Origin: Eledone cirrhosa
Lineage: Eukaryota
Assembly: GCA_964016885.1 (NCBI GenBank)
Contig: OZ024749.1
Coordinates: forward strand, 13,516,001-13,580,000
Reading direction: 5' to 3'
Length of the DNA: 64,000 nucleotides
In this document: piece after piece, positions 18,311 to 40,643 of the stretch
Layout: every line of letters starts with the position of its first letter
Position numbering within the stretch: the stretch's first letter is position 1
Translations under genes and position numbers: made by a program
Notes under the pieces: model-generated
The model's database searches: none
Told to the model about the DNA's origin: nothing
What the model saw: the letters and a program-made list of their open reading frames with translations, nothing else

Positions 18311-18963
18311 ATATGAATAAAGTGGTCCTTCATCAGTGATCTTCCAACCATCATCGGTATTTCTTCGCTTTAAAGACCCTATACCTCCGGTAGGTGCGAG
18401 CAACGGCTTTAAGAAAGTCGTTGGGACATGTAAATAAAGGGAACAGCGAGAATGTAAACAAACAAAGATGGTGAAGCAACGAAAAGTGAGGAAGAGCGAG
18501 TCAAGTCAAAAAATCGTGAACGAGAGAGAATAAAGACCATCAAACCTGGTTGAAATGTGAGCAAGGAAGGAATTTTGCACAGGTCTAACGGGAGGAAGAA
18601 GGGGTCTGGTCTGTGAATTCGGTAAACATAAGTTCTGTGAAATCGTAGACGAGAGAGAGAAAAAATGCCGACCGGCCTGGCCAAGCGTGCGAAAGAAAAG
18701 AATTACGCACAGGTCAAACGGGAAGGAGGAGGAGGAGGAGAGGTAGTAACAGAGAGTGAGTGAGTGAAGGGTGAGGAAGAGGCTAACAGAGAGAGTGACT
18801 GTTAGAGAGGGTAAAGATACAGAGAAAGAGGAAGCAGTAAGAACGAAAAAGACGGGTCACAGTGGGGGAAAAAATATGTGTAAATATGAGAATAAACGTG
18901 CTGCAGGGTTGCTAATGGGTTACATATGAATAAAGTGGTCCTTCATCAGTGATCTTCCAACCA
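18311..18963. mobile_element. ~613-nt non-coding element with a 40-bp terminal direct redundancy, flanked by (TA)n
   Basis: 18311-18350 is repeated at 18924-18963; homologous to 39778-40643 and 30898-31092. Confidence 0.85.
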
Positions 18964-19048
18964 ATATATATATATATATATATATATATATAAATCAGGA
19001 AAGAAGAGTGACACAGTTTGCTATACAAAAAAGGTTTTTAATCTCATT

Positions 19049-19154
19049 GCTGACCATTGTTTCTCTGAACTGGTAGGTCTAGAGATCGCTACCCGCTTAT
19101 TTTCACGTTACTCGATCACCAATACAAAGTTATAACCAGTCAATTCATCGGAGC
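19049..19154 (-). ncRNA. Hammerhead ribozyme, U4C variant with long stem II
   Basis: Minus strand: gct CCGATGA attgactggt...accagttcaga GAAAC aatg GTC agc. Confidence 0.65.
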
Positions 19155-20087
19155 TTGTGAGATATCATCCACTACCCGGAGTACCATAACTGGACTACAC
19201 CTAAGTGGACTACCTATAACAATAATTTGTTACCCCGTATATATATATATATATATATATATATATATATATATATATATATATATATATATATATATAT
19301 TTATATATATATATATATATTTATATATATAATATATATAAAGTATATACATATAATCAGTTTTTGTGGAAGCCAAATCGTTATGTTTATGACGCAAAAA
19401 ACACATAAACACAGACACACGAAAACACTCATGCACACACGCGCGCATATATATGTGTGTGTATGTGTATATATATGTATGTGTGTGTGTTTGTAAATAT
19501 ATATATATGTATATATATCTATGTGTATGTATGTATATATATATATATTTATTAAAATAATCTCTACGGTTCTTATATATTTGATATATATTTATCCTTA
19601 TCGAGCCCTCTTTGGATTTTAGTCTTCAAATTTATTATTTTTACTATATATATATATATATATATATATATATATATATATATATATATATATATATATA
19701 TATATATATATATATATATATATATCCATATATATATATCCATATATATATATATATATATATATACATATATATATATATATATATATATATATATATA
19801 TATATATATATATATATATATATACATATATATATATCCATATATATATATACATATATATATATATATATATATACATATATATATATCCATATATATA
19901 TATACATATATATATATATATATATATATATATATATATATATATATATATACAAATATATATATACATATATATATATATATATATATATATATATATA
20001 TATACAAATATATATATACATATATATATACATATATATATATATATATATATATATATATATATATATATATATGTATATATATAT

Positions 20088-20225
20088 ATGAAGGATTCAG
20101 GACCCCGACGGCTGAGCTCCTGCCGTTTCAAAAGCTGTTTCCGTCGGGGTACCGGATCCTTCATATTACCACACTCTACTACCCCAATTATCGAGTACTC
20201 AGGTGAGCAATTGGTCTAACAGGTT
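20088..20225. mobile_element. Fold-back relic containing the 3' half of a hammerhead
   Basis: Arms ATGAAGGATTCAGGACCCCGACGG / CCGTCGGGGTACCGGATCCTTCAT; the minus strand reads GAAACGGC aggagctca GCCGTC; followed by the ACTCTAC...ATCGAGTAC motif. Confidence 0.65.
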
Positions 20226-36357: not shown

Positions 36358-37898
36358 CTACTACTACTACTACTACTACATTGCTGCTACTACTACTACT
36401 ACTACTACTACTACTACTACTACTACTACTACTACTACTACTACTGCTGTTGCTGCTCCTGCTGCTAATACTACAACTACATGCTTAGCCATTCACCAAC
36501 AACAACACCACCACTACTAACATCACCACAATCACTACTAAAACCACCACTATTGCCAGCACCAGCACCACCACAACTATCACCACAGCCACCACCACTA
36601 CCACCACCAGTACCACCAGCACCACCATAACTACCACCAATACCACCAGCACCACTACCACCACCACCACCGCCAACACTACCACCACCACCACCACAAC
36701 CGCCACCACAACCACTCCTACTACTACCACTACCACCACATCCACTACTGCCACCACCACCACCAGCACCACCACCACTCCTATGACCACAACTACCACC
36801 ACCACTACTACCATCACCTCCACCACTACCACCACCACCACCACTACCACCACCCCTCCACTACCACCACCACTACCACCACTACCACCACCACCTCTAC
36901 TACCACCACCTCTACTACCACCACTACTACCAATCCAATATTTCATGGTGAAGATTTCGTTAAATTCCTTCTTTGATCCTGAATGGAACTTTCTGGAAAA
37001 TGTCACCAGTTTCACCGACATTTCAACTCACTACCACTAATACCACCACTACTACTACTACTAGTACTAATACCACCACTACTACTACTACTAGTACTAA
37101 TACCACCACTACTACTACTACTAGTACTAATACCACCACTACTACTACTAGTACTACTACCACCACCACCACTACTACTACTACTACTACTACTACTACT
37201 ACTACCACCATCACCACTACTACTACCACCACTACTACTACCACCACCACTACTACTACCCACCACTACCACTACTACTAATACCACCACTACCACTACT
37301 ACTACTACCCCTACCACTACCACTACTACTACTACTACCTCTACTACTCCCACCACCACCTCCACTACAACACCATCAACACCACCAATACCACATTATC
37401 AGCACACCACCACCACCAACCACCACAACAGGACCACACAACCACTACCACCACTACACCACCACTACACCACCACTACACCACCGCCACCCCTCCACCA
37501 CCACCACTACACCACCACTACCACTACACCACCACCAACACCACTACACCACCACAACCACCACCATTACACAACCACCACCTCCACCACCACTACACCA
37601 CCACCACCACCACCACCACCACTACACAACCACCACCACCACCACCACTACACAACCACCACCACCACCAGCACCACCAGCACCACCACCACCACCACCA
37701 CTACACCACCACCACCATTACACCACCACCACCACCACCACCACCACCACCACCACCACCACCACCACCACCACCACCACTACACCACCACCACCACCTA
37801 CACCACCACCACTACACCACCACCACTACACCACCACCACTACCACCACCACCACCACCACCACCACCACACAACCACCACCACCACCACCACCACCT
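36358..37898. repeat. (TAC)n/(CAC)n low-complexity tracts
   Basis: Direct reading. Confidence 0.95.
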
Positions 37899-38202
37899 AA
37901 ACCTCTCATCTCTTTATTTTCTCTTTCATCTCAATCTATTCCACGAAATGTCACAATAATTGTAAATATTGCACTAATCTCCTTTAAGCATGTTAGTAGT
38001 TGTTTGTTTAACCCATGGTCAGGACAGACCACCTTTTACAGCACAAATAGGATCAAAGCTCTTCCATATATGATCATCCCGTTTTTTAAAGGGTTTTTAA
38101 GGGTGTATATCTTGACCAATGATAAACTGCGACCCGTTTAGCTTCCTGAATGGTACGCCTCATTTCAAATTTGCCTTAAATGTTTTTAATAGTGTGGACC
38201 AC

Positions 38203-39580
38203 CTTATGAAGAGCCATATCTTATGATGAGCCAGTCTTCTGATGAGCCAACCTTATGATGAGCAACATCGTATGATGGTCCAATCTTATGATGAGCCACA
38301 TCTTATGATGAGCCAGTCTTCTGATGAGCCAGTCTTCTGATGAGCCAACCTTATGATGAGCAACATCGTATGATGGTCCAATCTTATGATGAGCCACATC
38401 TTATGATGAGCCAGTCTTCTGATGAGCCAACCTTATGATGAGCAACATCGTATGATGGTCCAATCTTATGATGAGCCACATCTTATGATGAGCCAGTCTT
38501 CTGATGAGCCAACCTTATGATGAGCAACATCGTATGATGGTCCAATCTTATGAAGAGCCATATCTTATGATGAGCCAGTCTTCTGATGAGCCAACCTTAT
38601 GATGAGCAACATCGTATGATGGTCCAATCTTATGATGAGCCACATCTTATGATGAGCCAGTCTTCTGATGAGCCAGTCTTCTGATGAGCCAACCTTATGA
38701 TGAGCAACATCGTATGATGGTCCAATCTTATGATGAGCCACATCTTATGATGAGCCAGTCTTCTGATGAGCCAACCTTATGATGAGCAACATCGTATGAT
38801 GGTCCAATCTTATGATGAGCCACATCTTATGATGAGCCAGTCTTCTGATGAGCCAACCTTATGATGAGCAACATCGTATGATGGTCCAATCTTATGATGA
38901 GCCACTTCTTATGATGAGCCAGTCTTCTGATGAGCCAACCTTATGATGAGCAACATCGTATGATGGTCCAATCTTATGATGAGCCACATCTTATGATGAG
39001 CCAGTCTTCTGATGAGCCAACCTTATGATGAGCAACATCGTATGATGGTCCAATCTTATGATGAGCCACATCTTATGATGATCCAATCTTATGATGAACC
39101 ACATCTTATGATGAGCAATATCTTATGATGAGCCAACCATATGATGAACCACATCTTATGATGAGCCACATCTTATGATGAGCCAACCTTATGATGAACC
39201 ACATCTTATGATGAGCAACATCTTATGATGAGCCAACCATATGATGAGCCACATCTTATGATGAGCCACATCTTAATGATGAGCCAACCATATGATGAAC
39301 CACATCTTATGATGATCCAGTCTTATGATGAGCCACATCTTATCATGAGCCACATCTTATGATGATCCAGTCTTATGATGAGCCACATCTTATGATGAGC
39401 CACATCTTATAAGGAGCCAACCATATGCTGAGCCACATCCTATGATGAGCCAATCATATGATGAGCCACATCTTATGACGATCCAACGATATGATGATCC
39501 AATCTTATGATGAGCCATATTTTATGATGATCCAATCTTTTGATGATCTACATCTTATGATAATCTAACCATATGATGAG
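38203..39580. repeat. 16/17-bp satellite with an 82-bp pentameric higher-order repeat
   Basis: TCTTATGATGAGCCAG-TCTTCTGATGAGCCAA-CCTTATGATGAGCAACA-TCGTATGATGGTCCAA-TCTTATGATGAGCCACA, repeated to about 39070 and then monomeric. Confidence 0.92.
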
Positions 39581-39777
39581 TCACATCTTTTGCAGCCCGC
39601 TGCTCGTAAAAGGTTGCCCATGACTTATCTAGAGCTACATTGTTTGTCGTTTTGTTTAACCCATGGTAAGAACACGCCTCATACAGCACCAAAAGGATCT
39701 GTGAACATCTCTTTATATATATATATATATATATATATATATATATATATATATATATATATATATATACATATATG

Positions 39778-40643
39778 ATAAGGGCGCTGCGGAGTTGCAA
39801 ATGGGTTACATATGAAAAAAGTTTGTCCTTCATCAGTGATCTTCCAACCATCATAGGCATTTCATCGCTTTAAAGACCATATACCTCCGGTTGGTGCGAG
39901 CAACGGCTAAAAAAAGTCGTTGGGACACGTAAATAAAGGGGACGCGAGGGTAAACAAACAAAATGGTGAAGCCACAGAAAGTGAGGAAGAAAGAGACAAG
40001 TCCCAGATTTCTATGAATTTAAATTCGGTGAAATCGTGAACGAGAGAATAAAGACCATCAAACCTGGTTGAAATGTGAGCAAGGAAGGAATTTCACACAG
40101 GTCTAACGGGAGGAAGAAGGGGTCTGGTCTGCGAATTCGGTAAACATAAGTTCTGTGAAATCGTAGACGAGAGAGAGAAAAAATTCATACCAGCTTGGCC
40201 AGCGTGCGAGAGAAAAGAATTACACACAGGTCAAACGGGAAGAAGGAGGAGGAGGAGAGGTAGTGACAGAGAATGAGTGAGTGAAGGGTGAGGAAGAGGC
40301 TAACAGAGAGAGAGACTGCTAGAAAGGGTAAAGATACATAGAACGAAAAAGACGTGTAGCAGCAGAGGAAAAAATATGTGTAAATATGATAATAAGGGCG
40401 CTGCGGAGTAGCAAATGGGATACATATGAAATAAGTTTGTCCTTCATCAGTGATCTTCCAACCATCATAGGCATTTCATCGCTTTAAAGACCATATACCT
40501 CCGGTTGGTGCGAGCAACGGCTAAAAAAAGTCGTTGGGACACGTAAATAAAGGGGACGCGAGGGTAAACAAACAAAATGGTGAAGCAACAGAAAGTGAGG
40601 AAGAAAGAGACAAGTCCCAGATTTCTATGAATTTAAATTCGGT
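39778..40643. mobile_element. ~614-nt monomer plus 252-bp terminal redundancy, same family as 18311
   Basis: 39778-40029 is nearly identical to 40392-40643; flanked by (TA)n. Confidence 0.88.

Follow-up and report, generated by a model that had tools for sequence, protein, structure and literature searches.

A non-autonomous repeat family of Eledone cirrhosa that carries half a hammerhead and is probably mobilised by Penelope-like elements

Penelope-like elements (PLEs) are known to leave partial tandems and adjacent inverted 5'-truncated copies, to carry a tail of 30-40 bp and to show a (TA)n bias; "half cores" ('HHR_half_core') are recorded in Naiad PLEs, and head-to-tail non-autonomous Chlamys elements, e.g. 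MRC1, have been described (Craig et al., PMC8557442). Frangieh et al. (PMC11167929) found two internal start sites of reverse transcription, one at either border of the tail, with cutting and extension of both strands; in vitro, mutation of the hammerhead left insertion normal, and its cleavage is dispensable there. Animal retrozymes, whose definition requires that every unit carry a complete type I hammerhead, have been argued to be non-autonomous PLE derivatives, from a sample of 35 mostly vertebrate species (Li, Clavereau and Pollet 2026, bioRxiv 10.64898/2026.07.22.740005). Here we analysed a repeat family present in a 64,000-nt stretch of the Eledone cirrhosa genome (assembly GCA_964016885.1, contig OZ024749.1, positions 13,516,001 to 13,580,000, forward strand), below called the window, where a first-pass annotation had seen a circularly permuted element of about 613 nt and a candidate self-processing RNA. 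We consider it very probable that the family is a non-autonomous PLE using a borrowed PLE reverse transcriptase (RT) and GIY-YIG endonuclease, retrozyme-like in organisation and with a half hammerhead that is predicted to be inactive.

The window contains three copies of the family. Copy A (18308-18963, minus strand) comprises 1.07 units of a 613-nt monomer and repeats 43 nt (18308-18350 against 18921-18963, 97.7% identity), and copy B (39775-40643, minus strand) comprises 1.4 units of a 614-nt monomer with an overlap of 255 nt (96.7% identity across 270 columns). Both are 5'-truncated and have (TA)n on both sides; of the two 3'-end sites described below, copy A ends at site 1, without a tail, and copy B at site 2, with one. 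Re-measurement thus reproduced the coordinates, periods, overlaps and flanks of the two long copies as first annotated, and the minus-strand motif quoted around CTGATGA is present as it was written. The third, reversed fragment of the first-pass annotation is copy C (30898-31095, plus strand), opposite in strand to A and B. It is a related copy, about 82% identical to B, but belongs to a different, 518-nt subfamily; it is 5'-truncated and ends at site 2 before (TA)n, which is present on its 3' side only. Copies A and B are 84.5% identical, and the copy B subfamily is young, with 97-99% identity among the top matches.

When the genome (3.0 Gb) was searched, the exact core 16-mer ATCACTGATGAAGGAC was found 7,466 times, far above chance and a lower bound for the number of core copies, compared with one occurrence of the reversed control, and the tail pattern 4,299 times compared with none. 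First-look candidates numbered 4,630, 3,666 and 3,108 with B, A and C as queries, respectively, and 40 of these were scored per query. Monomers taken from eight tandem copies were 514-637 nt long, with 66-68% pyrimidine on the core-bearing strand. The subfamilies of 514-518 nt are without about 100 nt at the region of an old internal duplication, which in copy B lies at 39983-40249 (minus strand; about 140 nt, about 70% identity). The longest ATG frames of the eight monomers were 13-127 aa, and none was shared among them. Sequence related to the family occurs in three sequencing runs from two organisms. No description of it was found in the literature searched; Repbase and Dfam lay outside this search and may hold an entry.

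The ends were mapped on family segments in 150 loci (L001-L120 and L141-L170), from which duplicates and segments touching a locus end had been dropped. Two sites separated by about 40 nt accounted for the 3' ends of 141 of the 151 segments: 46 ended at site 1, 20-33 nt downstream of the first base of the core, and 95 at site 2, 58-84 nt downstream of it. The remaining ten ended elsewhere. The 5' ends were spread over 118 positions and segment length varied from 0.06 to 2.29 units, segments longer than one unit being common. In core-pattern loci taken in genome order, 15 of 31 segments ended at site 2, 13 at site 1 and three elsewhere (28 of 31 fixed); 30 core anchor matches read singly were short in 11 cases, long in 12 and continuing into another unit in 7. 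Both sites typically read TCAT(AT), merging into TA, and a microsatellite adjoined 131 of the 141 fixed-site 3' ends. At the 5' side the neighbour was a microsatellite in 76 segments, an inverted family copy in 33, a direct copy in five and other sequence in 37. The 40-nt "tail" between sites 1 and 2, a term taken from PMC11167929 and PMC8557442, is internal in copy A (18884-18923, minus strand) and terminal in copy B (39772-39809, minus strand).

Of the proposed circular permutation only the difference in phase between A and B was retained, as the 3' ends, which for A and B are to be read on the minus strand, are fixed at two sites and only the 5' ends vary. The phases seen in A and B result from tail-less versus tailed 3' ends combined with random 5' truncation. 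Fixed ends resembling long terminal repeats (LTRs) had been named beforehand as an observation that would speak against a self-processing element, and were found in part: one end is fixed, as in the pseudo-LTRs of PLEs. Features of a PLE derivative that were observed are the fixed 3' end with an optional tail, 5' truncation, partial tandems (up to a 4-mer), inverted adjacent copies (33 of the 151 segments), microsatellite targets and no coding capacity.

Three of the 151 segments (in L006, L099 and L147) were part of composite insertions: at a distance of 0-5 nt, their 5' end faces, head-to-head, a 5'-truncated copy of one autonomous PLE in opposite orientation. In each composite the partner extends to its own hammerhead and 3' end and is absent from the other flank, and TA runs are present at both outer ends. 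A partner in the same orientation was found at none of the 151 family 5' ends. The open frame of the partner, of 823 codons, matches RVT_1 only weakly (E 2e-4, short of the Pfam threshold), and a CxxC linker and C-terminal GIY-YIG-like motifs can be read from its translation, which would fit a Neptune or Nematis type. Partner-type PLEs in L217-L219 form partial tandems, have a short upstream frame overlapping an RT-endonuclease frame of 822-828 codons, and have, in the pseudo-LTR, a hammerhead core whose helix I is weak. This L217-type PLE is the likely mobiliser of the family. It was found near the 3' flank in five loci, including that of copy C, where a 3'-end fragment of the candidate partner (31168-31255, minus strand) stands tail-to-tail with the family copy across a common TA run; identity to the L217 element is 96.8% over 31099-31255, TA run included. 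A further L217-type 3' fragment lies at 28143-28422 (plus strand). At the other 5' junctions, 2 of 37 had a hammerhead-bearing neighbour within 900 nt, which is not informative.

Two other candidates were rejected. A PLE found in L201-L203, with overlapping frames of about 350 and 784 codons and both RVT_1 and GIY-YIG, is very young and active, with many intact copies, and no CTGANGA core was found within the element in these loci. It had no homology to the family in the 30 loci compared, except for a family copy inside L171, and formed no true junction. Naiads were considered as parent: a motif search of the Naiad consensi, which a motif split by a line break could escape, gave no match, nor did two octopus Naiad 3' ends compared by eye.

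The core of the family reads CUGAUGA followed by A-GGAC. In copy B it is located at 39830-39836 (minus strand; second occurrence at 40444-40450), with GAAA absent downstream, and in the 3' unit of copy A at 18330-18336 (minus strand; second occurrence at 18943-18949); in copy C it is UUGAUGA at 31026-31032. A9 is followed by an unpaired A, as is usual in minimal hammerheads of PLEs, where one base between A9 and G10.1 is left without a partner (Cervera and de la Pena 2014, PMC4209133). An unrelated family with 6,264 pattern matches starts with the same CTGATGAAGGAC, TA being next in most listed copies, and carries the intact 3' half GTCC-GAAAC-GTT that is lacking here. The family has thus probably retained, in CUGAUGA-A-GGAC, the 5' half of a PLE pseudo-LTR minimal hammerhead of type I; its origin by deletion we only infer, because no ancestor with an intact hammerhead was found. 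Matches considered as an intact-hammerhead subfamily (1 + 20) were all ordinary copies ending at site 1 and then GAAAC, with no helix II partner in the printed matches. The intact minimal hammerhead of the unrelated family with 6,264 matches, of the form CTGATGA A GGAC loop GTCC GAAAC GTT, was seen e.g. at L124:1395-1615, with 3' ends flanked by TA/CA, and in L135 about 400 nt after a GIY-YIG frame. Two more minimal-hammerhead families, of the CTGAAGA-GGTCAC and CTGACGA-TGTTGCA types, were present in L068, L070, L089, L095 and L109, both with a GAAAGAAC-TT/TA cleavage context.

In the insertion mechanism that we propose, a multimeric transcript of a tandem copy would be bound near its structured 3' region. 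The enzyme would cut a TA run and begin cDNA synthesis from within the RNA, at either site 1 or site 2; the positions of these sites, about 40 nt apart, are observed and the mechanism is drawn by analogy (PMC11167929). Synthesis would traverse the unit, continue into the one upstream and stop at random, which would give the observed copies of 1.0-2.3 units, permuted in appearance only. Priming of the second strand would append a copy in inverse orientation, the template being at times a different RNA, e.g. that of the Neptune/Nematis-type PLE, as at the observed junctions, in which case the two RNAs would share the enzyme.

Several points weigh against this explanation. All mapped loci were found with queries containing the 3' region and the sample is biased toward it, although such queries do not force two end sites. 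The L217-type partner is abundant (35,671 first-look candidates) and only three junctions support the partnership; compared by reading, its printed sequence and the monomer have only a similar TTTCAT(TA)n end in common. Of the PLE families compared, the Naiad consensi, the 784-codon PLE and, beyond the core, the intact-hammerhead family showed no homology to the repeat family, and genome pattern searches did not find an intact-hammerhead version with the flanks of the family. Furthermore, several dimers share private variants in both units, as a circle would also give, and the proposed mechanism does not account for the renewal of long multimers in the absence of a circle.

To locate hammerheads, eight circularised monomers were scanned on both strands and independently of permutation for a helix II partner of at least four pairs followed by GAA. 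None of the eight monomers had a helix II partner followed by GAA(A), whereas helix II and GAAA were found in all four control families, three of which scored complete. A canonical core, noted as lacking in the first-pass annotation, is absent. The helix II partner proposed there was found 36 nt upstream in all eight monomers, followed by UAAAG instead of a sequence giving G12-A13-A14, and therefore a U occupies the G12 position. G12 is the general base, and the change G12A, to which the figure applies rather than to G12U, costs about 10^6-fold in the full-length hammerhead (PMC2553840). The NUH triplet before helix I is not conserved, as had been noted, being CUA in B, CGA in A and CAA in C; CUA was present in only two of the eight monomers, both B-type, and CAA was commonest in the core set. 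This set contained 98 sequences, after 14 of 112 had been dropped as junction-containing or without anchor motifs. U4, G5 and A6 were kept in all 98, position 7 was U or C, and C3U occurred in five; the positions beside the core were as conserved as the core itself. The first pair of helix I was kept in 62 and the G-C pair of helix II in 61 of the 98, with no compensation.

Among 12 hand-picked diverse copies, none of the 11 pairs of the proposed type II helices was changed on both sides, and two of the pairs were broken in 7 of the 12 sequences. Enforcing these helices cost 6-21 kcal/mol compared with the best fold; the predicted pairing probability was at most 0.003 for helix I in all eight monomers and at most 0.001 for helix II in seven of eight, and fold z-scores were unremarkable (+0.6 to -1.9). 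An alternative fold of 23 pairs was 94.5% paired in the same 12 copies with four pairs changed on both sides, a covariation that rests on few events and on a structure derived from these very sequences. Three of the four belong to hairpin 1 (CAACGAC/GCCGUUG; 39901-39922, minus strand, in copy B, second occurrence at 40515-40536) and differ between subfamilies; in A/B types, one pair of this hairpin is in better agreement with the opposite strand. The predicted long hairpin 2 (CCAACC/GGUUGG plus GGUAU/AUACC; 39844-39894, minus strand, in copy B) competes with the proposed hammerhead helices. Rfam gave one chance match for copy B and no ribozyme (twister, pistol, HDV-like and hatchet included) at E up to 10, but this silence says little, because the same scan missed a control PLE hammerhead; for the whole window, the matches listed (150 of 349) were microRNA-type and similar matches to simple repeats. 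A separate hammerhead-like motif with a long helix II (CTGATGA...GAAA...TA) was noticed at 13905 (plus strand), in a palindromic AT-rich repeat.

If the 3' region were an active non-canonical ribozyme, whether type II-like or a novel three-way junction with GUCC/GGAC as its closing stem and CUGAUGA inside, perhaps protein-assisted, the element would be a true retrozyme. The kept CUGANGA core, the UAAAG after the helix II partner in every monomer and the covariation of hairpin 1 agree with this, a relaxed type II-like layout arose by chance in only 28-36 of 2,000 shuffles, and the PAc hammerhead cleaves only with protein (PMC11167929). Because the layout is rare in shuffles, the core well kept and the variation located at position 7, a decayed or odd ribozyme motif is possible. 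The U at G12, the NUH restricted to B-type monomers, the uncompensated losses in both helices, their very low pairing probabilities and the equal conservation of neighbouring positions, together with C3U, make activity very unlikely in our judgement. The first-pass suggestion of a type II or non-canonical ribozyme was thus not supported, the U at G12, the lack of a conserved NUH and of covarying pairs and the cost of the fold all speaking against it. We give a very low probability to the more specific idea that the 3' domain (hairpins 1 and 2, the GUCC/GGAC stem and the junction CUGAUGA) is a new, possibly protein-assisted self-cleaving RNA which replaced the GAAA half and makes a circular PLE template. 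A new ribozyme class is not indicated on present evidence, and the half hammerhead is predicted not to self-cleave.

The nature of the template can be considered apart from cleavage. The suggested tandem template agrees with head-to-tail multimers of up to four units and with the frequency of copies above one unit, while the suggested rolling circle is neither needed nor shown. A PLE-mobilised family could nevertheless use a circular RNA made independently of a ribozyme, by back-splicing or ligation, or the RT could jump from one molecule to another, with rolling-circle copying making the multimers. Such a template would suit the private variants found in both units of L236 (six, both full units), L013 (three) and L056 as well as the exact head-to-tail period, and circular intermediates have been proposed for PLEs (PMC4209133) and shown for retrozymes (Cervera and de la Pena 2020, PMC7229834). 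In the 4-mer L235, however, five private variants occur in units 3-4 only and three in units 2-3 only, so that none of the eight is present in all units. In L239, variants confined to the upstream or to the downstream unit recur in both inverted arms, as would be expected if the template had two units, although conversion between the arms could mimic this. Adjacent units of the copy B type differ by 2.5%, about as much as separate loci (2.7%; overlapping loci and TA boundaries add noise), and no variant specific to unit rank was clearly recurrent among 32 loci. Judged by L235 and L239, some insertions are unlikely to stem from a single monomeric circle, whereas others, such as L236, could; overall we regard a circular template as rather unlikely. 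It is very unlikely that the family is a short interspersed element (SINE)-like repeat moved by a microsatellite-targeting long interspersed element (LINE), or a DNA-level repeat such as a Helitron or satellite. LINE-type RTs are abundant, with one in the window, and LINE-type priming would also explain variable 5' truncation; but there are two internal 3'-end sites with read-through into the next unit and no poly(A), the inverted arms end independently at site 1 or 2, and the fusions to PLE copies and the hammerhead half-core also speak against it.

Other features of the window were recorded. A 180-bp high-copy interspersed repeat, which may resemble an octopus SINE, lies at 30665-30897, flanked by a 25-bp sequence in two inverted copies, of which the second is fused to copy C at its 5' end; further occurrences of the 180-bp repeat are at about 13230-13610, 20580-20765, 22150-22735, 23580-23770, 41770-41957 and 63200-63390. 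Long palindromes that are almost perfect (93-96%), as is characteristic of inverted 5'-truncated insertions of PLE type, are located at 31254-31544, 58594-58896, 61460-61774 and 62516-63240, and large minisatellite arrays at 6011-6984, 9012-11773, 38200-39592 and 56347-57547. A non-LTR retrotransposon at 32685-35873 (plus strand) has frames of 446 and 616 codons, the latter with RVT_1 (E 3e-20).

Whether PLEs need their hammerheads for transposition is an open question (PMC8557442, PMC11167929). A family that is young, numbers thousands of copies, apparently lost half of its hammerhead and inserts together with a hammerhead-bearing PLE would be a natural in vivo test of dispensability. It also offers a minimal template of 600 nt for mapping recognition by the PLE enzyme, and the head-to-head composites of two different RNAs are consistent with a dimeric enzyme by which each strand is primed independently.

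In comparison with known systems, the family shares non-coding tandem repeats with the non-LTR animal retrozymes (PMC7229834; bioRxiv 10.64898/2026.07.22.740005). These have a complete type I hammerhead per unit, whereas the family has only CUGANGA-A-GGAC, and by that definition it is not a retrozyme, since a complete hammerhead was looked for and present in none of the eight monomers. With the Naiad and Chlamys PLEs (PMC8557442) it has in common a PLE-type mobility (here a probable one) without a canonical hammerhead, half cores, multicopy head-to-tail non-autonomous insertions and, for Naiads, the (TA)n bias. It differs in that no similarity to published Naiad 3' ends was seen, and in its partner, whose endonuclease is C-terminal and whose own hammerhead retains helix II and GAAA. 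Compared with the endonuclease-containing (EN+) PLEs of Neptune/Nematis type (PMC4209133, PMC11167929), the family is without an open reading frame and without the 3' half of the hammerhead, and has no homology to the autonomous copies tested. It resembles them in its fixed 3' ends, the tail of about 40 nt, 5' truncation, partial tandems, inverted 5' copies, AT-rich targets and the unpaired base after A9.

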